A DNA stretch of 60,655 bases from a virus. Its lineage: Duplodnaviria > Caudoviricetes. A model generated the notes under the pieces. That model searched no databases and had not been told where the DNA came from. It saw only the letters and a list, made by a program, of their open reading frames with translations. Positions 1,310 through 10,679 of this stretch are shown piece after piece (position 1 is the stretch's first letter; each line of letters opens with the position of its first letter). The stretch spans positions 1 through 60,655 of IMG/VR virus record IMGVR_UViG_3300020442_003253. One strand, written 5' to 3'. The position numbers and the translations under genes are program-made.

Positions 1310-1921
1310 ATGAGAATAATTGCTTTTGGATGCAGTATGACATTTGGTCAAGGACTGCCAGATTGTGTACAAGGTAAGAAAAGAGATTTGCCTAGTCAGT
1401 ATGCTTGGCCTAGTGTGTTGGGAAGATTAACAAGGAGACCTGTGATTAATCTTGCAGTACCTGGTGCAAGCAATTTAGAAATTTTACATACAATAAAAAA
1501 ATTCAGCAACACAATTGGATCCCATGATATTGTGTGTGTGATGTGGAGTTACATAGAAAGAAGTTGCGTAATCAAAAATGATTCTGTATTACAGATTGGG
1601 CCATGGATAGATAAGCCTTACAGTAGAGAATATTATAGATTACTTCATGATGCCAGTCATGATAGATTTATGTATCAATTGTATGTGCATCACGCAGACT
1701 ACACGTTAAGATCACATACAGATAATATCTTATATACTGAAGTTTTAGAATCTGGTGCTTTTCCTTTACAACTGCAATGTATGCCTGTAAATTATGGTAA
1801 TATACCAGTAGCTGAAGATCAACCTGCACATGATCTAGGAATAGATGGAATGCATCCTGGCATCATACAACATGAACGATTAGCAAAACAAATCCTGCCT
1901 TATGTCAGACCTTTTCTATAA
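1310..1921 (+). CDS. SGNH/GDSL-like protein
   Basis: MRIIAFGCSMTFG (block I with GCS), NLAVPGASN (block II), DGMHPG (block V); start at 1310 follows TAAATA at 1299-1304. Confidence 0.75.
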   Translation: MRIIAFGCSMTFGQGLPDCVQGKKRDLPSQYAWPSVLGRLTRRPVINLAVPGASNLEILHTIKKFSNTIGSHDIVCVMWSYIERSCVIKNDSVLQIGPWIDKPYSREYYRLLHDASHDRFMYQLYVHHADYTLRSHTDNILYTEVLESGAFPLQLQCMPVNYGNIPVAEDQPAHDLGIDGMHPGIIQHERLAKQILPYVRPFL

Positions 1922-2438
1922 TCCACAACTGTATTTTACACCAGCTGATTGTGCAGAAATATTTGCAAACCCTTTGCAATTTACTAAAGGTTGTTGGAGT
2001 AAATTCAATACCTGCATTAGGAGTGATTTAATAACAGATTTTTATACAACTAAGCATTGGAGTATAATCAAAAACAAAATGCCAGGATCGCATCTACATC
2101 GGATGGATCACCTCCATGCAGGGTTCACCTTACACTGTTTACCTCCTGGAACTTATTATGGTTGGCACACGGATGAGATTTCAAAAAAAGGTGTAAGTGT
2201 TAGATCAAGAACAGTGGTTATAACAGTTAAAAAAGGAATCAGCAGTTTACTGGAAACTGAAAAAGGTATTTTTGATTTACCAGAGGGTTGGGGTATACAG
2301 ATACCAATTGGAGATCAATATCAGATATTAGGACCACAGATTACGAAAGATAATCACGATAACGATCACTGGGTGTTAATAGGCTGGGGAATGCAAAGAC
2401 TAAGCGATTATTATTGGAAAAAGAATTTTGATAACTAG
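1902..2438 (+). CDS. 2OG-Fe(II) oxygenase-like protein, possibly degenerate
   Basis: YYGWHTD (H-x-D) followed by R-x-x-TVVI and a terminal VLIGW strand; distal His not evident. Confidence 0.5.
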   Translation: MSDLFYNPQLYFTPADCAEIFANPLQFTKGCWSKFNTCIRSDLITDFYTTKHWSIIKNKMPGSHLHRMDHLHAGFTLHCLPPGTYYGWHTDEISKKGVSVRSRTVVITVKKGISSLLETEKGIFDLPEGWGIQIPIGDQYQILGPQITKDNHDNDHWVLIGWGMQRLSDYYWKKNFDN

Positions 2439-2944
2439 TTAGGTCGGTTTTGTTTAGGAGGTAATAATCTTGTTGAGTCGATCTTATACAAGTCGAACAT
2501 TTCTCCGCCTTCGGATTTACTAGTTCCTAAACCACCTAGAGAATCACCTTCTTCACCAAATAAACTTTCCTCATCTTCTGTAGCTTGATTGAATGCACCT
2601 TCTACCCATGTGCCATTACGAGCCTGTTGCATCGCTGCTTCTAGCTGTGCATGCTGTTCTTCTGTGTAGGGTAATGAGTATGCACGGGGTTCTGTTTCAT
2701 TATCGTGCAGCACCCACATGAATATACGTGTATCAGAATTAATATAACCTAGCAGTGTAAATTTGTCTAGTGCATAACGTGTGGTAGGATAACCTAATAC
2801 GCTACCATAGAAAGTGTACAACCCAATTGCACAAGCTAAAGATACAGGTATTATATAATAGAGATGTACACTGCCTCTTGTGCTGATCATAGCATATATA
2901 ACTATCAATACAGCAACTATCGCGATAATTAAAAGGTATGTCAT
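2435..2944 (-). CDS. membrane protein, two N-terminal TM helices, acidic C-terminus
   Basis: Hydrophobic segments at about aa 3-20 and 27-48; start overlaps the upstream stop (TAATG). Confidence 0.75.
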   Translation of the reverse strand: MTYLLIIAIVAVLIVIYAMISTRGSVHLYYIIPVSLACAIGLYTFYGSVLGYPTTRYALDKFTLLGYINSDTRIFMWVLHDNETEPRAYSLPYTEEQHAQLEAAMQQARNGTWVEGAFNQATEDEESLFGEEGDSLGGLGTSKSEGGEMFDLYKIDSTRLLPPKQNRPN

Positions 2945-3591
2945 TAAAATCCTCCTGAACCTTGTGTTGTTGTTGGGCCTGTAGGAGCTTGAACTAATCT
3001 CTTAGGCAGTCTGTTAATTTTCACAGCAGCACCGTCCTTGTTTAGTGTGAATCTCACAAATGTTTCTTCCTGCCCACGAGCTTGTAGTGTTTTACTGTCA
3101 GTAAAAATAACCTGGAATGGATTTAGCCTGATAACTTCAATGTTAACATCAGCCGGAATACCTGTACCGTAAGATTCGGAACCAATGCTTGGACTACTGT
3201 AATAATGAGCATTAACTACATAGTCGCCTGGTTGTAGTGCTCGCAGTGTTACAATTTCTCTATTAAGGAATATCTTTTCCATCTTTCCGTTTGGCATTAC
3301 GTAATAATCATTACGCACTCCAAGATCGTCTTTGTCTAGATGTACATGCCCGGCGACAGTGTTTATGTAGCTGACTTTGCCATTAGGAGTTTCTACCCAG
3401 AGGTCAATATCGCCTTCGTGATCATCCTGCCAGCTCATTACGATCATTATCTCTGCTTTGTATTCTATTTCAGATGTTTTGGCAGGATTGTTAATCAATA
3501 AGAAGCTGATTAGGAACAGCATCACAAAACCAAGTATTAAGTTGAACAGTAAATCTATAAAGGCAAGATTTGATACGTAACGTCTATCCAT
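2944..3591 (-). CDS. MotB/ExbD-like single-TM protein with YfaP/DUF2135-like C-terminal domain
   Basis: AFIDLLFNLILGF with intramembrane Asp like ExbD PFIDV; SW...DIDLWVETPNG and HLDKDD motifs. Confidence 0.65.
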   Translation of the reverse strand: MDRRYVSNLAFIDLLFNLILGFVMLFLISFLLINNPAKTSEIEYKAEIMIVMSWQDDHEGDIDLWVETPNGKVSYINTVAGHVHLDKDDLGVRNDYYVMPNGKMEKIFLNREIVTLRALQPGDYVVNAHYYSSPSIGSESYGTGIPADVNIEVIRLNPFQVIFTDSKTLQARGQEETFVRFTLNKDGAAVKINRLPKRLVQAPTGPTTTQGSGGF

Positions 3592-4057
3592 CTACGTGCT
3601 CATCCACTAACACAAGTTGTAACTTTAATAGCACACTCGCAATCAAGCCAACCAGTGTAGTCCATAGAGCAGTTCCCATTCCTGTAGCCATCATACCTAG
3701 TGCTTCCTGTACACTTGCGGTATCTTCTACATTAATACCTGTAAACACTGTAGTCAACATATAGATAAATCCTACCACAGTTCCTATCATTCCTAAGCTC
3801 AGCATGGTTTCACCAGCGAACCATTCTGGATTGGTGCTAAATGTGTATCTGTCTTTATCACGGTCAAATCGGTGTAATCTGTAGCCTAGTCTTAGAGAGA
3901 ATAAGAAATATAATCCTATTATTACCCAGCTAATCTTAGTAATGTCACTCTTGTACAAGCTGTCTAGGAATCCAAATGTCCAGCTGAGATACATTACCAA
4001 TACACTTACACAGAGTACCGTATACCATTTAAGTCGAGTTTGTATGTTTTCATTCAT
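3584..4057 (-). CDS. MotA/TolQ/ExbB proton-channel family protein
   Basis: LGMIGTVVGF and GMGTALWTTLVGL match the ExbB/TolQ channel helices, including both conserved Thr. Confidence 0.85.
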   Translation of the reverse strand: MNENIQTRLKWYTVLCVSVLVMYLSWTFGFLDSLYKSDITKISWVIIGLYFLFSLRLGYRLHRFDRDKDRYTFSTNPEWFAGETMLSLGMIGTVVGFIYMLTTVFTGINVEDTASVQEALGMMATGMGTALWTTLVGLIASVLLKLQLVLVDEHVDG

Positions 4058-5700
4058 CAGTTATTTATCTCACCCCATTGTTTAAAAGTGTAACACTTGG
4101 TGTCTACGGTGTGTATATAATCCGATCTATCCTGTGTGCGGATGCGTCCTTGGCCATATACGATGTCATAATCTCTATATGCTACTGGTCTCTGTACTGT
4201 AACGTCTATGTATTCGCCATAACCTGTACCTAGTGTAAGGAATGTTACCCAGCGGCCATTAGTACCGCGGAATGCACGACCATTAGCTACAATGCCTGCA
4301 AACTCTACACGGTCAAGCCACTGCTGCCGTACACCCAACCCATCCGGAAATCCTCGATGCCACCAGCCCGGCTCTGCAGGTACTTTCACCCTGTGTGCTT
4401 CACAGTTGTACACCCAGCGCCTGTAACTGCCTTGGCAATGTTTTAGACATGCTGCCCAGAACTTACGTTTGTTATGTGCTTTCTGATATGCCAATGCCCA
4501 GATAAGTCTTCCTAAGTTAACAGCATGCGCCCTGCACAATCCAAAGCCACTTAGCTCTTGTAGTGCAGCAATAGCTTCCTGCTTGCGTGGGTGATCGCCT
4601 ATCCGCTGCATAAATTCAAGTATCCTTGAATCGTTCTTCTTTGCAAATGCACGGCGATACATGTCTGCTTCGTAGTTGTCTACATCTATTATATCACTGA
4701 TAATCTCAATAGCATCATCCTCAAACACTATTGAGTCCTGTACTGCTTCTCTGCTCCAGTCGTGGAACATAGCAGCCTTCTGCCTACCTGACAGTGCTAC
4801 TGGACGTATCAGTGCAGTAGCAAACACACAATCTTCTACGCTCTGTGGTTGTAGCGCACGGAATAGCCTACGCATCGCAGGGGACTCGCCTTGCGTAACA
4901 CCTAGTACATCTCCCCTGCACAACAGTTCACTTGTAGCAGGATCCGTGCGTGGATAGTCTGCAAGTGCTGTATCCGGATCTATCTCTAGCAGTTGCGACA
5001 ATCCACGATTAGCTAGGATATCTACCTTAAGGTGCTCTAGGTCTTCTACTTCGTATTTGTCCAGTAGTATTTGATTATCTGCTGATATAAGGCTTTTAGG
5101 TAACTGGCGTGTAAACATTACTACACCGCCACAGTGCTTGCTTATACAACGCTTCTTGCCCAAGAGCTTGCGTTCTATACGTTTAGCTTCTTTAGGATCC
5201 ACACCCGCAGATTCATACGTAAATCCACGCTTTAGTGCTCCTGTAGCGCCCAAACGCTTTGCTGCTTCTCTACGTGCGCTCTTTTCTTTATATGTAACGT
5301 AGTTGCTTAAACGTGCAGTTTTACCAGGCCATTTTTTAAATATCCTCTGCATAACTTCATTCTGCCTGTGATGTTCAAAGTCTATGTCAACATCAGGCAA
5401 GTCGTCACGCATTGGATTCATAAAACGTGCAACTGGTATACGCCACTGTACAGGATCAACATCTGTAATACCAAGTAGGTAACAGATGAGGCTAGAGCCT
5501 GCGCTGCCACGTGTCATGTGTGTGAGGTCGTCTGTGAGATCTATTATATCACATATTTGGAGGAAGTAATCTGTGAAGCGTTGATTGAGGATTAGTTCGA
5601 ATTCTTCTACTAGTCTTAGCTTATATTCTTCGCCTTGTGGTATGGGTCTTTTGAAGCGACCCATGAGCCTTTCTATATTATCTAAATCTGTATTTGCCAT
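4057..5700 (-). CDS. dnaE: DNA polymerase III alpha-like (family C), compact, no PHP domain
   Basis: TRGSAGSS, LLGITDVDP, RFMNP.R..PDVDIDF, KHCGGVV, KVDIL, ALIRP, FGLCRAHA; short OB-like C-terminus. Confidence 0.9.
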   Translation of the reverse strand: MANTDLDNIERLMGRFKRPIPQGEEYKLRLVEEFELILNQRFTDYFLQICDIIDLTDDLTHMTRGSAGSSLICYLLGITDVDPVQWRIPVARFMNPMRDDLPDVDIDFEHHRQNEVMQRIFKKWPGKTARLSNYVTYKEKSARREAAKRLGATGALKRGFTYESAGVDPKEAKRIERKLLGKKRCISKHCGGVVMFTRQLPKSLISADNQILLDKYEVEDLEHLKVDILANRGLSQLLEIDPDTALADYPRTDPATSELLCRGDVLGVTQGESPAMRRLFRALQPQSVEDCVFATALIRPVALSGRQKAAMFHDWSREAVQDSIVFEDDAIEIISDIIDVDNYEADMYRRAFAKKNDSRILEFMQRIGDHPRKQEAIAALQELSGFGLCRAHAVNLGRLIWALAYQKAHNKRKFWAACLKHCQGSYRRWVYNCEAHRVKVPAEPGWWHRGFPDGLGVRQQWLDRVEFAGIVANGRAFRGTNGRWVTFLTLGTGYGEYIDVTVQRPVAYRDYDIVYGQGRIRTQDRSDYIHTVDTKCYTFKQWGEINN

Positions 5701-5759
5701 TGTGCCTTTCTTTGCCTCTATGGCAAATATTTACTTCCTAGTAGGTGTAAGGCACAATG
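5698..5759 (-). promoter_or_regulatory. start-codon-sequestering hairpin with internal late promoter in the dnaE leader
   Basis: 11-bp perfect inverted repeat CATTGTGCCTT (5698-5708) / AAGGCACAATG (5749-5759); GTAAATA lies between the arms on the minus strand. Confidence 0.7.
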
Positions 5760-5765
5760 ATCTGA

Positions 5766-6599
5766 TTAGCCTACAAAAGCTTTCTCTACTACATAATCTC
5801 CTGGAGTTCCTGTGTTACCTTCTGCAAATCCATTTGCATCAAGTACACGTTTTAGATCTTCATTAAACTCCATACTGCCACAAAGCATTACACGATCTTG
5901 TTGAGGATCCATTTCTCCTAGCAATACCTTATCATCGATAAGTTCTGTGATGCGTTTTTGATATCCTATGAACAATTCGTCTCTTGTTACAATAGGAAAT
6001 AAATTTAAATCATAACCTGTTAAGTCTGCTCTATATGCTTTAAGTTCATCTTGCTCTCTAACACTCCATGCCACGTTAACTTCTGCAAAGACATTAAAGA
6101 TATCTTTCTGTCTTACTAGACTCATAAAAGGTGCAATACCTGTTCCTGTTGCAAGTAACCAAAGCCTGCGACCTGGCTTTAGGTTTTCTAATAACAGGGT
6201 GCCTGTTGCCTTAGTACCTACTTCAACTGTATCACCAGGCTGAATATTTTTTAGCCTTGAAGTAAGTGCTCCGTCAGGCACCTTGATCGAATAAAATTCT
6301 AAATGATTATCTGTAGGAGAACTGGTAATCGAATAAGCCCTGCGTACCTTATCACCAAGGCCAATCATTACAAACTCACCTGCTTTAAATGTGTATCCTA
6401 CTGGCTTGTCTGTAACAAATCTAAACAGTGTATCGGTATAGTGTTGTACTTCTCTAACCATTACAACATGTTTATCGTTTTTTGGTTTTTCAGCAACCTG
6501 TTCTGCTTGCAGTACTAATAGTTCTGCTTGCCATTCTGCTTCTGATAAAGCATGCCATCCTCTACAAAAATCTGGACTTCGTCCGCATCCACACGCCAT
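5766..6599 (-). CDS. fpr: ferredoxin/flavodoxin-NADP+ reductase with N-terminal CDGSH-like motif
   Basis: RAYSITS, GALTSRL, ATGTGIAPF, VMLCGS, VEKAF; N-terminus CGCGRSPDFCRGWH; AAGGAG SD. Confidence 0.9.
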   Translation of the reverse strand: MACGCGRSPDFCRGWHALSEAEWQAELLVLQAEQVAEKPKNDKHVVMVREVQHYTDTLFRFVTDKPVGYTFKAGEFVMIGLGDKVRRAYSITSSPTDNHLEFYSIKVPDGALTSRLKNIQPGDTVEVGTKATGTLLLENLKPGRRLWLLATGTGIAPFMSLVRQKDIFNVFAEVNVAWSVREQDELKAYRADLTGYDLNLFPIVTRDELFIGYQKRITELIDDKVLLGEMDPQQDRVMLCGSMEFNEDLKRVLDANGFAEGNTGTPGDYVVEKAFVG

Positions 6600-6608
6600 A
6601 GTTCTCCT

Positions 6609-8036
6609 TTAGTCTGATTCAGTGTTTAGGTTATTTAAGAATTCTTTAAGTTTTGTACTGTCAGTCTTGGCTTTGATCTTACCTACTGTATCTCCTTCTG
6701 CAGGATCCTCTCTTACTGTTTCCTGTTGTGTTTGTGCAGTCCTTTTGATCTGATCAAACACTGTGCTCTTACGTTTGTTAAATTCTTGATAGTCTTCGTC
6801 TTCATTCATATCACGTATACGCAGATTATCAATATCAAATTCTAAATCTACTTTACTACCGACACCACTTGAGTTACGTGTTTTCATTAGCTGTATCTGA
6901 TATCTACCACGCTCTCGCATAGCCCTACTTGTAAAGATACCTATTACATTATCCGCAGTTTGTATCTTACTAAGTCCGCCAGATATGTGCGAATGATCAA
7001 ACTCTATCTCCTCTACGCTTGCCCTGTTTAACTGACTAGCTGTAACAAACAGTGTATTAGTTTCCATTGCTAGATTACGTAGTTCTTCACTTACATATTT
7101 GTCCTTAACAAACAAGTTCTCTGCTGATATACGTTTAGCAATAGGCATCATTAGATCTAAGTAATCAACAAGTATTACTTCAATCTTACGTCCTGTCTTA
7201 ACTTCAAACTCTTTAATGTAACTACGTAGATCATTTGCAGTCTTACCGCTTGGCATATACTTGACCTGGAAAGCACCGGACTTCTTCCCTATCATCCTTA
7301 CTTTCATTTCCACATCGTCTATGCTTTTAAATATTTCTCTGCTGGGTATGTCAGTAACCATACTGTCAAGCCTCATGCTTACAATATTTTCACTAAGCTC
7401 AAATGTTAAGTATAGCACATTAAGTCCCGCAAGCGCCCAGTTCACTCCTAGATTAGCTAAGAACAAACTCTTACCAGCACCACTACCGCCTGCAAATATG
7501 TTAAGCTCTCCCCTGTTAAATCCTCCAAACAATCTTTTATCTAGTGTAGCCCAACCTGTGCTAACCTGTCCGTTGCGGCTTTTTATTTCTTCTAGTCTTG
7601 TACGAGGATCTCTCCAATAGTCTGTTCCTAGGTCTTTCTGCAATCCTATCTGTACTGCTTTCTTAACTAAATCTTCAACAGGTCCATACTCGCCTTTCTC
7701 TAGTAAGTCTGCTGACTTGAGGATTGCATCTTCTAATGCTTTATGCCTGCTAAATGTTTCAAACTCCTGTAACAGCCAATCATAGTGTTGTTCTTGTAGT
7801 GTACCAGGATTTTTTAAATCACATTTAGCTGCAGCATTAATCATGTCAAACGTAGGCAATGCGTTATGCTCTGCTACATAATCTTTTAAGAATTCTGCAG
7901 CAGGTTGCAAACGCCTATCAAACGTCTTTGGTTCAAATACACCTTGACATCTTACATAGCTTTCGGCATCTGTAAGGAACATCTCAAGATATACCTTTTG
8001 TATATCGTATCCGTAATCTACATTTTGTCTTGACAT
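6609..8036 (-). CDS. gp41: replicative DnaB-family helicase (T4 gp41-like)
   Basis: GGSGAGKS Walker A, LTFELSE, LVDYLDLM, TASQLNR, LMKTRN. Confidence 0.92.
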   Translation of the reverse strand: MSRQNVDYGYDIQKVYLEMFLTDAESYVRCQGVFEPKTFDRRLQPAAEFLKDYVAEHNALPTFDMINAAAKCDLKNPGTLQEQHYDWLLQEFETFSRHKALEDAILKSADLLEKGEYGPVEDLVKKAVQIGLQKDLGTDYWRDPRTRLEEIKSRNGQVSTGWATLDKRLFGGFNRGELNIFAGGSGAGKSLFLANLGVNWALAGLNVLYLTFELSENIVSMRLDSMVTDIPSREIFKSIDDVEMKVRMIGKKSGAFQVKYMPSGKTANDLRSYIKEFEVKTGRKIEVILVDYLDLMMPIAKRISAENLFVKDKYVSEELRNLAMETNTLFVTASQLNRASVEEIEFDHSHISGGLSKIQTADNVIGIFTSRAMRERGRYQIQLMKTRNSSGVGSKVDLEFDIDNLRIRDMNEDEDYQEFNKRKSTVFDQIKRTAQTQQETVREDPAEGDTVGKIKAKTDSTKLKEFLNNLNTESD

Positions 8037-8048
8037 TTATTCAAATAT

Positions 8049-8765
8049 TTAAATATATTTTTTTTCTTGCAACCAAGGTATGATAACCTGGTCTGTAAAT
8101 AGTTTATGCTGTTCACTTGTTGGGTGAATACCGTGTTTCGGAATTATAATATCAGTATTTTCTTTACACCATTCGTAGCAACCTTTATTACCTAGTATAA
8201 AAGGATTCCAGTTTATTAAATTTATAAGATGCTCTGTTACAGGACTAGCATGTATATCTTCTAAGACACTATCCATATAAGTAAGCATAAAATATTTAAT
8301 GTTGTACTTTTCTAACAACAATTGTGTATATAAAATATATTCTAAAGTTTTTATAACACCGAACATAGGATCATAAAATCTATAAGTATTCATGGCATAC
8401 GGATTTTTCCAGCGAGCATTTTGTATAACCCATCCACCTGGATCATTTTCTACAAAATTGTCAGGATTTACCAACCAACCATCATAATTCCGTGATCTCA
8501 ATTTATGTATGATATGTTGATCAGTTGTATAAAATTCACTTCGACTAGTTCCACTCCACATGATGCCAACAAGGATATTTTCATAATCATCTTGCTGTGA
8601 TATTTCATAAATTAATTTTCTGGCAATTAGACCGTTACCTTGACTCCCCATAGAACAGTTAGTCCATGAAGACGGTTGTAAAATTTTATTCAGTTGTGCA
8701 GTCCACGGTTGTACCCCTCCTGTATATGTTTCTCCAAAACTACAGGCACTAGTTATTAAAATCAT
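8049..8765 (-). CDS. SGNH/GDSL-like protein
   Basis: LITSACSF (block I variant), N.SMGSQGN, GIMWSG..R, GIHPTSEQH. Confidence 0.65.
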   Translation of the reverse strand: MILITSACSFGETYTGGVQPWTAQLNKILQPSSWTNCSMGSQGNGLIARKLIYEISQQDDYENILVGIMWSGTSRSEFYTTDQHIIHKLRSRNYDGWLVNPDNFVENDPGGWVIQNARWKNPYAMNTYRFYDPMFGVIKTLEYILYTQLLLEKYNIKYFMLTYMDSVLEDIHASPVTEHLINLINWNPFILGNKGCYEWCKENTDIIIPKHGIHPTSEQHKLFTDQVIIPWLQEKKYI

Positions 8766-9159
8766 AATTTATCCCCATCGTAAATAATGCATTTACTGCA
8801 TTTTCAGTTGGCTTACGTGCAAACACACACCATTGTAACACTTCTTCGTCTGGATAGTTTTCTGCAACATAATCTCGGAAGCTCTTACCTGTTGTGTATA
8901 CATCGTCTACAACAAGCACAGGATCGTCTATGTTCTGTGTACCGTATCGATTAAGTGCTTCGCCTAATGCTACACCGCCTCTGGGTATACCTACAGCAGC
9001 TCGCCAGTTACGAGGTTCAAACTCGCGGATAATATGTGCAAGGGCAATCCATTCTTCTGGTGATATAGCATCACACTCAATTTTCCATGTAAGTGGTAAG
9101 CCTGCATGGCTTATAAAATTTATTTTTTGGAATAGGTCTATGTTAATGTTTTTATTCAT
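8749..9159 (-). CDS. type I phosphoribosyltransferase
   Basis: PRPP-binding loop LVVDDVYTTGKS; GIPRGG. Confidence 0.85.
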   Translation of the reverse strand: MNKNINIDLFQKINFISHAGLPLTWKIECDAISPEEWIALAHIIREFEPRNWRAAVGIPRGGVALGEALNRYGTQNIDDPVLVVDDVYTTGKSFRDYVAENYPDEEVLQWCVFARKPTENAVNALFTMGINYDFNN

Positions 9160-10679
9160 GAAAATACCTTTACATTGTATAGTTTACTAAATTCTTGTGC
9201 ATCTGTCAATGTGTTTACTATAGGTTTGCCTTTTATATTGAGGCTAGTGTTTAACAGCATAGGACAGCCTGTTAGTTCGTACCATCTTTCCAACAATAAT
9301 CTAAAACCAGGGTGATCTTCTTTTGTAACTGTTTGAACTCTGCTTGTTCCGTCTGCGTGGATAACTGCAGGGTATCGTTCAGGATCCTTACAATGTGCGG
9401 TGTACTGCATATAACGTCCGAAGGGCGGCTCAAATAAACTGGCTGCATATTCTTGAAGAACTGCGGGTGCAAATGGTCTAAACTTCTGTCTGCGTTTGAT
9501 GGCATTGACTTTATCTTTAATATCCATACGCTGAGGGTCAGCAAGAAGGCTGCGAGCGCCAAGGCTACGAGGACCGAACTCGGCTCTTCCTGACGCAACC
9601 CCTGCAATACCCGTTTGCATAAGTTCATTAACGATTTCATCTACTGGATATTCTCCTTCTATATCGTAACCTAAATAAGGTCCAGGCCACTCTGTATGTG
9701 TACCTCTGTGTGCAAGTACTGCTCCTATGCAACTGCCTGCATCACCTGGATTAGGCATTATCCAAACGTTATCAGCACCGTTCCAATGCTCAACTATCTT
9801 GCTGTTAGCACTACAATTCAAAGCACAGCCGCCCATAAACACTATATTACTGCTAGTGTATGTCCTGGCTACAGCCTTACTTATCCTAGTTAAAATATAT
9901 TCATATGCCCATTGTGTTCCGGCTGCTACATCATATGCCCATTGGGTAAACTCTTGCTTACCGTCTATTATATTGAATGCAATTTCAGTAGGCTCCCACC
10001 ACATACATCCTCTATGTAGATTGTGTTTCAAATGGAAATTAGGCAAACGATCAAACATATTAAGAAGATTTGAACTCTTATCCCAAAATGCATTTAATAT
10101 CTTTTCTCCATACTGACTGGCATTGCCATATGCTGCCATGCCCATTAATATGTACTCTTCCTCATTTGGTTTAAGTCCAATACGTTGTGTCATCGCACTA
10201 TACCAAATGCCTATACTGTTAGGATAGTTCCAGGTACGCTTACATGTAAGTTTATCGTACTCACCTTCCCATACGCTAAGAGTATTCCATTCGCCAATAG
10301 CATCAATAACTAGCACAGTTGCATGATCAAATCCGCTAGTATAGTATCCAGCTGCTGCATGTGAATGATGATGCCCTACTGTTGATATAGGTGCTGTTAA
10401 GCCAAAAGATTTTAAATATTTTTTTATACAATTCTTGTTTAATAAATCTTTTTGCCCAGCATATAGTTGCCGTGTAGTTTTAAGGAAAGGTTTTTCGTAC
10501 CATACAATCCTATCAGGTTCTCCCCATTGTAATGCGTAATTGACAATATCTTTATTTAGATGTGGATCATTTTTTATTCCACTAAACCTTTCTGTATGAC
10601 TAGCAAATTTGATAACATCATTATGATGTACAGATATTGCCGCATCGTGACTATTTGCGCTCACGCCCCATGTTATCAT
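9156..10679 (-). CDS. carbamoyltransferase (NodU/CmcH/TobZ family)
   Basis: SHDAA, ERFS..KND, HHHSHAA, ID.IGE, MGMAAYG, GGCALN, GDAG, EFGPRSLG.RS, FRPFAP, H.DGTSRVQTV, LNTSLN. Confidence 0.93.
   Translation of the reverse strand: MITWGVSANSHDAAISVHHNDVIKFASHTERFSGIKNDPHLNKDIVNYALQWGEPDRIVWYEKPFLKTTRQLYAGQKDLLNKNCIKKYLKSFGLTAPISTVGHHHSHAAAGYYTSGFDHATVLVIDAIGEWNTLSVWEGEYDKLTCKRTWNYPNSIGIWYSAMTQRIGLKPNEEEYILMGMAAYGNASQYGEKILNAFWDKSSNLLNMFDRLPNFHLKHNLHRGCMWWEPTEIAFNIIDGKQEFTQWAYDVAAGTQWAYEYILTRISKAVARTYTSSNIVFMGGCALNCSANSKIVEHWNGADNVWIMPNPGDAGSCIGAVLAHRGTHTEWPGPYLGYDIEGEYPVDEIVNELMQTGIAGVASGRAEFGPRSLGARSLLADPQRMDIKDKVNAIKRRQKFRPFAPAVLQEYAASLFEPPFGRYMQYTAHCKDPERYPAVIHADGTSRVQTVTKEDHPGFRLLLERWYELTGCPMLLNTSLNIKGKPIVNTLTDAQEFSKLYNVKVFS

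Follow-up and report, generated by a model that had tools for sequence, protein, structure and literature searches.

A conserved three-gene membrane module of phages with a minimal MotA/ExbB-family channel protein

Do phages encode ion-driven membrane motors of their own? MotAB, ExbBD, TolQR and ZorAB are each built as a pentamer around a dimer, and an aspartate of the dimer carries the ion. Such 5:2 motors power flagella, nutrient import, envelope maintenance, gliding and anti-phage defense, and to our knowledge all that have been described are cellular. The question is raised by three overlapping genes, here called A, B and C, in IMG/VR virus record IMGVR_UViG_3300020442_003253, a linear record of 60,655 bases that was analyzed over its whole length and is termed the window below. 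An earlier note on this DNA had read the trio as a phage-borne motor operon, with a MotA/ExbB-type channel protein, a MotB/ExbD-like partner and a third membrane protein. We have examined that reading by comparison of profiles, predicted structures and gene orders. By analogy with the known systems, we think it probable that the trio encodes a compact, ion-driven complex resembling the MotA/ExbB-type stators, with its output in the periplasm. The coordinates of all features are collected in Table 1.

The assignment of protein A is the foundation of this reading. The Pfam family PF01618 (MotA_ExbB) matches A over residues 87–143 with 26.7 bits against a cut-off of 22.9 (27.8 bits in a six-frame search), and the same family is recorded for 103 of the 120 listed homologues of A, which are around 150 amino acids in length and mostly metagenomic. 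Using hhalign, A aligns with transmembrane helices 2 and 3 (TM2–TM3) of Escherichia coli ExbB with a probability of 63.7% (E = 6.7e-5), and with TolQ with a probability of 47%. The alignment pairs GMIGTVVGF of A with GLFGTVWGI of ExbB, and GMGTALWTTLVGL with GIAEALLATAIGL, placing T93 of A on T148 and T134 on T181, the two pore threonines of ExbB. T93 is found in 70/70 viral-type sequences and 118/118 database homologues (188/188 of the phage type). T134 is present in all 70 viral-type sequences, all 72 from Burkholderiales and 115 of 118 database homologues (257/260). From its sequence A is thus a minimal member of the MotA/ExbB/TolQ channel family, and the earlier description of a small channel protein that keeps both ExbB-type threonines holds.

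Matches to more specialized models are weaker. The best NCBIfam match is to NF033917 (ZorA), with model positions 1–121 against A 22–144 at E = 1.3e-5 and 24.3 bits, where the cut-off is 500. The PADLOC ZorA2 models match A with E = 3.7e-5 and weaker (20.9 bits), the exbB equivalog model gives 13.8 bits against a cut-off of 206, and the MotP and PomA models give 10–12 bits.

Hydrophobicity and the alignment indicate that A probably has four TM helices, at approximately 11–30, 43–60, 84–106 and 122–148. Between helices 2 and 3 there is a positively charged loop of just ~22 residues (61–82), so that no sizeable cytoplasmic domain separates the early from the late helices, and the chain ends nine residues past the last helix. 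This suggests a MotA-like topology minus the cytoplasmic domain. D38, in the short periplasmic loop before helix 2, is retained in all ungapped sequences except for one with alanine.

Gene B directly follows the channel gene and is coupled to it. Its product has a short basic N-terminus, a TM helix carrying D13 within the motif FID, a short linker and a periplasmic β-sandwich. Only one TM helix is found in a hydrophobicity scan. In the AlphaFold2 (AF2) model, with a mean predicted local distance difference test score (pLDDT) of 81.6, this helix extends from residue 3 to 33 and is separated from the sandwich by coil at 34–47. D13 is invariant in an alignment of 25 B sequences, where the homologues are 37–87% identical to B of the window. 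Of 410 distinct homologues, 403 retain it, the remainder being six gaps and one valine. The earlier note had named conservation of this intramembrane aspartate as a point on which its proposal could fall, and the residue is clearly conserved. By eye, the motif aFIDllf of B is similar to pFIDvml of ExbD (D25) and pLLDvll of TolR (D23).

The periplasmic domain of B is of a different kind from those of ExbD or the OmpA-type proteins, as the model is an all-β sandwich. A Foldseek search of the PDB with this model returned the integrative model 9a6r_B as its top match (E = 1.5e-4), followed by the TerD-type chains 2qng, 3ibz and 2qz7 with E = 4.6e-4 to 5.1e-4 and modest TM-scores of 0.40–0.52, and by the DUF4425 chain 3u6g_B (E = 6.7e-4). 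The calcium-binding TerD of Klebsiella, 2kxt, was lower (E = 1.9e-2). TerD-like proteins are also among the matches of B in the BFVD viral structure library. At the level of sequence, a B profile found nothing significant among PDB sequences (best E = 0.29), and the only Pfam match of the window's B at E ≤ 1 is DUF4329 (E = 0.14), far under its cut-off. The sandwich contains a cluster of invariant acidic residues, D61, D63, D88, D89 and E112, together with the near-invariant D86, N94 and D95. By likeness to TerD, this cluster is probably a site for a divalent cation.

The outer domain of B had also been likened to YfaP/DUF2135 in the earlier note. We find no match at E ≤ 1 between the window's B and DUF2135 (PF09906), for which the model has just 48 positions and a cut-off of 22 bits. 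Weak matches occur in 6 of the 25 aligned homologues, with a best E of 0.0061. The nearest named clusters to B in the Atlas carry DUF2135, with scores of 0.83 and 0.82, and are treated as leads only. The DUF2135 model matched in none of five Burkholderiales genomes that carry B homologues. From these profile matches a relationship to DUF2135, at best weakly indicated, is not demonstrable.

Protein C has two N-terminal TM helices, as the earlier note had described. In the AF2 model (mean pLDDT 80.2) they extend over residues 2–21 and 27–50 and form a hairpin, followed by a small β-β-β-α-β domain at 62–118, a disordered acidic stretch and a final C-terminal strand. An alignment of 27 sequences reveals conservation of a G-Y-P exit motif (G51, P53) and of W77, P86, Y93 and G111. 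The loop between the helices is basic across the C family, and this would place the domain on the periplasmic side. No significant family was found for C in Pfam, NCBIfam, PADLOC or PHROG, and a Foldseek comparison of the model with the PDB gave no match at E ≤ 0.001. A complex prediction with residues 38–215 of B and 47–169 of C scored 0.08 against a mark of 0.32; it was made without controls and is uninformative either way.

An Atlas structure look-up with C returned mostly viral hypothetical clusters, plus one viral cluster of 297 amino acids in which all members have a phage lysozyme domain. The TM-score of the latter is 0.61 by the query and 0.37 by that row, and we regard it as a lead only. 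This cluster may be a membrane-anchored lysozyme with the same hairpin, or the resemblance of the two helices may be fortuitous. A search for longer, fused versions of C at 330–2000 amino acids, a range that lies above the 297-residue cluster, found none.

How constant is the association of the three genes? Relatives of B were found in 127 IMG/VR stretches and in 204 stretches of GTDB genomes, and the best 80 of each were used. Gene order was surveyed over 164 loci, among them that of the window. ABC is seen in 147 of these and CBA in one (the window's own, where the trio is on the opposite strand), with AB in nine, BC in five, A alone in one and BAC in one. Where viral contigs extend far enough, all 79 have A immediately before B and all 74 have C. 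For genome contigs the corresponding numbers are 70 of 73 for A and 75 of 77 for C. The three misses of A arise from the calling of open reading frames (ORFs), as A was seen at these loci in the gene-order survey. One of the two misses of C (L154) is a similar artifact, and the other (L126) is a real loss. Six viral contigs (L064, L065, L067, L071, L081 and L084) carry from one to three additional genes, which follow B or separate it from C; the distance from B to C in these is 242–1342 nucleotides (nt).

The genes that flank the trio vary with the phage lineage, and include those for DNA polymerase III alpha, an FNR-like protein, UvsY, gp23, gp15, peptide deformylase and an SMC-like ATPase. 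Given that the flanks differ while the A-B-C order is constant, the three genes evidently travel as a unit through T4-like, jumbo and other phages. A, B and C form an inseparable conserved module, and the co-occurrence elsewhere that the earlier note had put forward as decisive for its proposal is found.

The family is large. A profile search with B gave 2123 representatives (clustered at 50% identity) at E ≤ 0.001, 1518 at 1e-10 and 545 at 1e-30. Among cultured phages B matched 29 records, all of them phages of Rhizobium or Sinorhizobium with ~30–33% identity. In RHph_N34 (T4-like), RHph_N3_13 and the temperate phage 16-3, the B gene is flanked by A-like and C-like genes. The DNA of the trio gave no match to cultured phages, and the A protein none at E ≤ 1e-3; when a more distant A homologue from a Rhizobium phage was used as the query, 23 cultured-phage records were found. 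C gave a single marginal match to cultured phages, with E = 9e-3. Every copy in the deposited phage records is annotated as a hypothetical protein or carries a locus name such as p040.

The module is also found in bacterial chromosomes. Most of the best 80 genome loci belong to Comamonadaceae, Sphaerotilaceae and related Burkholderiales of a freshwater group, and isolates with the trio include Sphaerotilus mobilis DSM 10617 and Pseudaquabacterium pictum. In S. mobilis the neighbors of the trio are genes for an ABC transporter, TctC and RlmJ, and no phage-related Pfam family was detected in the ten flanking ORFs scanned. Among sampled genomes, B was found in 6 of 301 from the order as a whole and in 31 of 201 from one Burkholderiales family. 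In 30 of these 31 there is one match to B, and in the other there are two partial matches next to each other.

The chromosomal form has features of its own. A fourth gene, D, encoding ~240–260 amino acids, follows C in 65 of 80 genome loci (the Burkholderiales loci are L088–L164; an example of D is L107:6114–6893) and in 0 of 80 viral loci; it has only a weak DUF3108-like match (best E = 5.7e-5). In Burkholderiales the loop of A that joins helix 2 to helix 3 is longer by ~50 residues. In a quick maximum-likelihood tree of B, 74 Burkholderiales-type proteins lie on one side of a branch with an SH-like approximate likelihood ratio test (SH-aLRT) value of 95. Internal branches within this clade are short and follow the genera, and the 70 phage-type rows are far more divergent. 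Rows of less than 170 amino acids and duplicates were excluded, and L100 and L137 were counted with the phage type. As the tree is unrooted, it does not fix the direction of transfer between phages and bacteria. At 22 of 80 genome loci, an ABC-2 exporter with its ATPase and a Peripla_BP_6 binding protein lie directly upstream of the trio (for example L107:1304–4252), which hints at a link to an export process.

How would such a module work? The three proteins would form one inner-membrane complex, made by the phage within its host. By analogy with all solved members of the family, A would ring the TM helices of B, and D13 of B would lie opposite T93 and T134 of A, there taking up and releasing the coupling ion. 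The passage of ions by way of D13 would power a cycle of conformational change or of rotation. Since A is practically devoid of a cytoplasmic domain, the work would be delivered in the membrane or the periplasm, in the latter case through the TerD-like sandwich of B, a putative binder of divalent cations, and through C. The module is self-contained and mobile among phages, and one lineage of Burkholderiales has a chromosomal copy to which a fourth gene is attached. The analysis shows that A belongs to the family, that its threonines and the aspartate of B are conserved, which folds B and C have, and that the gene order is constant; the 5:2 ring-and-axle assembly, the flow of ions, the periplasmic topology of C and the binding of cations are inferred.

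Several observations weigh against this model. The Pfam score of A is just 3.8 bits over the cut-off and the match is confined to the last two helices, while the hhalign probabilities with ExbB and TolQ given above are moderate. In the same alignment A has T129 at the position of E176 of ExbB, and it is without the cytoplasmic domain that is present in every characterized member of the family. The TM3 threonine itself, T93, is replaced by lysine in 70 of 72 Burkholderiales copies of A, which means that the ion pathway varies within the family. For B, comparison by hhalign gives a probability of 0.3% with E. coli ExbD and 0.1% with TolR, and no ExbD, MotB or OmpA family matches at E ≤ 1 in Pfam or NCBIfam. 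As homology to ExbD/TolR is not detectable, the pairing of A with B is an analogy, and B may be called MotB/ExbD-like only in its gene position, topology and aspartate; the earlier description of B stands for these three and fails for profile similarity. Neither a plug helix nor a peptidoglycan-binding domain is found in B by the AF2 model and Foldseek. Of the three proteins, only A has the sequence signature of the family: B lacks both the homology and the domain of ExbD/TolR/MotB, and C lacks the traits of TonB/TolA. The motor interpretation of the earlier note is thus partly supported, and its assignment of A to the MotA/ExbB family holds on the profile evidence.

The resemblance to the known systems is therefore best described in parts. 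A is in the Pfam family of the channel proteins of ExbB-ExbD-TonB and TolQ-TolR-TolA and has both pore threonines, but its loop of ~22 residues stands in place of a large cytoplasmic domain and it probably has four TM helices rather than three. B matches ExbD/TolR in its topology and has its aspartate in a similar FID/LLD motif, but it has no profile similarity to them and carries a TerD-like sandwich as its periplasmic domain. The order of a channel gene, an aspartate-protein gene and a gene for a third membrane protein is that of tolQ-tolR-tolA, which puts C at the tolA position. TonB and TolA have a single TM helix with a conserved histidine that contacts the motor, and a characteristic C-terminal domain. 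Unlike them, C is a two-helix hairpin that by eye has no histidine in helix 1, and its domain has no TonB/TolA match in the PDB. With MotA/PomA, A shares a probable four helices with both ends cytoplasmic, and B shares with MotB/PomB an aspartate close to the cytoplasmic end of its single helix. It differs from MotAB/PomAB in that A has no rotor-driving cytoplasmic loop, and B neither a plug nor an OmpA-like domain.

Zorya offers a further comparison, with a ZorA that has a long cytoplasmic tail, a peptidoglycan-binding ZorB, and ZorC/D or ZorE as partners. The best NCBIfam and PADLOC matches of A are to the N-terminal membrane part of ZorA, which is similarly compact, but A scores far below the ZorA cut-offs and has no cytoplasmic tail, and the module is borne by phages. 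No ZorB, ZorC or ZorD model of PADLOC matched B or C (other flanking genes were outside that scan). Identity with Zorya was considered and rejected, as the matches are confined to weak ones with the ZorA N-terminus and B and C have none.

The TerD family, known from tellurite resistance, comprises calcium-binding β-sandwich proteins that are soluble and cytoplasmic. The fold of the B domain is closest to TerD-type chains (3ibz, 2qz7, 2kxt) and it has an invariant Asp/Asn/Glu cluster, but neither Pfam nor the PDB profile search gives a match in sequence, and the domain of B is anchored outside the membrane. B and C belong to no described family. In the literature we found no paper on a phage-encoded module of this kind, though supplementary gene tables may hold annotations. 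In two surveys of the evolution of stators and force transducers, the available passages refer to phage solely where Zorya is discussed (PMC12505986, PMC12204202), and in a paper on the jumbo phage XacN1 exbB appears in the reference list only (PMC5852040).

What else might the trio be? An alternative to the stator-like complex is a channel without motor action. In this case A and B would make up an ion pathway that has no plug and transmits no mechanical work, and the phage would use it to lower the membrane potential for the timing of lysis or for host shut-off. The coil at 34–47 of B where a plug helix might have been, the failure to find a peptidoglycan-anchoring domain and the lack of a cytoplasmic domain in A would all fit such a channel. 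Yet the homologues of Comamonadaceae and Sphaerotilaceae are single-copy, chromosomal and mostly vertically inherited, and a constitutive leak is unlikely in such a setting; because these copies lie outside prophages, the complex is better argued to be a working machine than simply a toxic leak. The strictly conserved periplasmic domains of B and C would moreover be superfluous for a mere leak, and the trio lies among genes for replication, recombination and structure with no lysis gene among its annotated neighbors in the phages looked at. On balance we consider the channel improbable.

Less probable again is that these are three unrelated small membrane proteins, such as a holin, an antiholin and a spanin-like protein, with the MotA/ExbB match a chance resemblance of glycine-rich helices. 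The marginal Pfam score of A could be read in this way, and so could the lysozyme domain of the C-like viral cluster of 297 amino acids, which is a lead only. Chance does not readily explain why PF01618 is found on 103 of 120 independent A homologues, why both ExbB pore threonines are in register and nearly invariant, or why an aspartate is located in the helix of the partner where the family needs one. The bacterial copies are chromosomal and outside prophages, and the absence of fused C at 330–2000 amino acids adds weak evidence in the same direction. Finally, that the trio is a host-derived ExbB/ExbD helper of iron uptake, i.e. a set of auxiliary metabolic genes as virome pipelines would label it, can largely be dismissed, for while A is in the Pfam family of ExbB and the passages available of one virome paper list viral exbB/exbD among iron genes (PMC13065750), B is not ExbD (hhalign gives nothing and the fold is different), A is far below the exbB equivalog cut-off (13.8 bits against 206), there is no TonB-like gene, C having two TM helices, no histidine in the first and no PDB match, and the flanks of the trio contain no TonB-dependent receptor.

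The earlier note had suggested superinfection exclusion, lysis timing, nutrient uptake or the jamming of host motors as possible roles. For the stator-like complex three roles can be ranked, each as a possibility. The first is that, like Tol or Ton, it would energize some process of the envelope while the infection proceeds. The second is the exclusion of other phages or interference with the envelope motors of the host. A regulated ion leak is placed last, because the chromosomal copies speak against a merely toxic channel and the trio lies among early and replication genes.

The expression of the trio in the window was examined from its junctions and signals. All three junctions overlap. The polymerase gene upstream is coupled to A through the sequence TGATG, as the earlier note had stated. 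A and B overlap by 8 nt, with the start of B at 3591–3589 and the TAG stop of A at 3586–3584. The B/C junction is TAATG, in which the stop TAA (2946–2944) and the C start ATG (2944–2942) have one A in common. Purine-rich stretches resembling ribosome-binding sites precede the starts of the trio, the clearest being AGGAGG located 7 nt before C.

The earlier note had placed a late promoter at a TAAATA hexamer upstream of A, which we have rejected. The window contains 94 copies of TAAATA where shuffles predict 127.9, and 100 of 100 shuffles have at least 94; the full T4 late motif TATAAATA is present five times against 12.1 expected. The hexamer also ends 4 nt before the ATG of A, and this is too close for a leader with a ribosome-binding site. 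Scans for sigma-70 promoters and terminators over 1800–6800 gave site counts no higher than those in shuffles. We take the trio to be the end of a run of replication genes that share its direction. RNA libraries of three studies yielded contigs of related strains; these contigs, 90–99% alike, span the polymerase gene, A and some of B, and run across the polymerase/A junction (X16 record 12, 3843–4401) as well as that between A and B. The uncovered parts of C carry no meaning. The contigs give a weak hint that the polymerase and trio are co-transcribed, bearing in mind that such libraries can contain DNA.

Table 1. Features of the window at and around the trio, with positions on the 60,655-base record.
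Feature	Position	Strand	Description
Gene A, 157 aa	3584–4057	−	ORF; minimal MotA/ExbB/TolQ-family protein (from sequence)
Gene B, 215 aa	2944–3591	−	ORF; one TM helix and predicted periplasmic β-sandwich
Gene C, 169 aa	2435–2944	−	ORF; predicted two-helix TM hairpin and small domain
TGATG junction	4055–4059	−	Polymerase stop TGA (4059–4057) and A start ATG (4057–4055), one base common
TAAATA hexamer	4062–4067	−	Late promoter of the earlier note; not counted as part of the system
DNA polymerase III alpha-like, 547 aa	4057–5700	−	PF07733 1.5e-41, PF17657 4.8e-16; adjoins trio upstream
FNR-like FAD/NAD-binding oxidoreductase	5766–6599	−	Among replication genes
DnaB helicase	6609–8036		Member of the same co-directional replication-gene run as the polymerase; 51% to PA5oct
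Carbamoyltransferase	9156–10679	−	Among replication genes
Apparent paralogue 1, ~230–240 aa	2–730	+	One of three apparently paralogous genes
Apparent paralogue 2, ~230–240 aa	1232–1921	+	One of three apparently paralogous genes
Apparent paralogue 3, ~230–240 aa	8049–8765	−	One of three apparently paralogous genes
aa, amino acids.

The surroundings of the trio are those of replication and nucleotide metabolism, with genes for a Toprim primase, DnaB, an FNR-like flavoprotein, a carbamoyltransferase and a DNA polymerase III alpha-like protein. The DnaB-like helicase of PA5oct, a jumbo Pseudomonas phage, is 51% identical to the one encoded here, and the helicase of Agrobacterium phage Atu_ph07 is 48% identical. 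DNA near-identical to the window is contained in marine and seawater metagenome runs of several studies, which leads us to regard the window as part of a marine jumbo phage that is uncultured; its completeness is estimated at 17% by CheckV. The polymerase-like protein comprises NTPase and finger domains only, without the PHP or N-terminal part. Its gene may be split or truncated, given that the FNR-like flavoprotein gene is the next upstream. The same form of 547 amino acids precedes the trio in related viral contigs such as L007. Several related contigs, L014 among them, likewise have an FNR-like gene (cluster 9) ahead of the trio. Two of the three apparently paralogous genes (2–730 and 1232–1921) have by eye a common QYAWP..LGRL motif. 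Those at 1232–1921 and 8049–8765 have weak DUF6071 matches, E = 1.6e-4 and 6.8e-3 respectively, below the cut-off.

A more far-reaching proposal can be made, which we put forward tentatively and with some doubt. The trio could be the first virus-encoded ion-driven ring-and-axle motor, a self-contained machine of three proteins that the phage installs in the inner membrane of its host and that performs mechanical work in the periplasm through a cation-binding TerD-like domain and a new two-helix transducer, that was exchanged once with an ancestor of Comamonadaceae and Sphaerotilaceae which added the fourth gene. If this is correct, the motor could keep the envelope intact through a prolonged infection or bar competing phages. 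It would then be a new branch of the MotAB/ExbBD/TolQR/ZorAB group that has its center of diversity in phages. The carriers of the trio are T4-like marine phages, jumbo phages and phages of Rhizobium, and tractable systems are available in the cultured Rhizobium phages and in bacterial isolates such as S. mobilis. Should the trio prove to act as a motor, it would illustrate how far machines of this type can be reduced in size, and for the biology of phages it would be a new kind of function in the take-over of the host.

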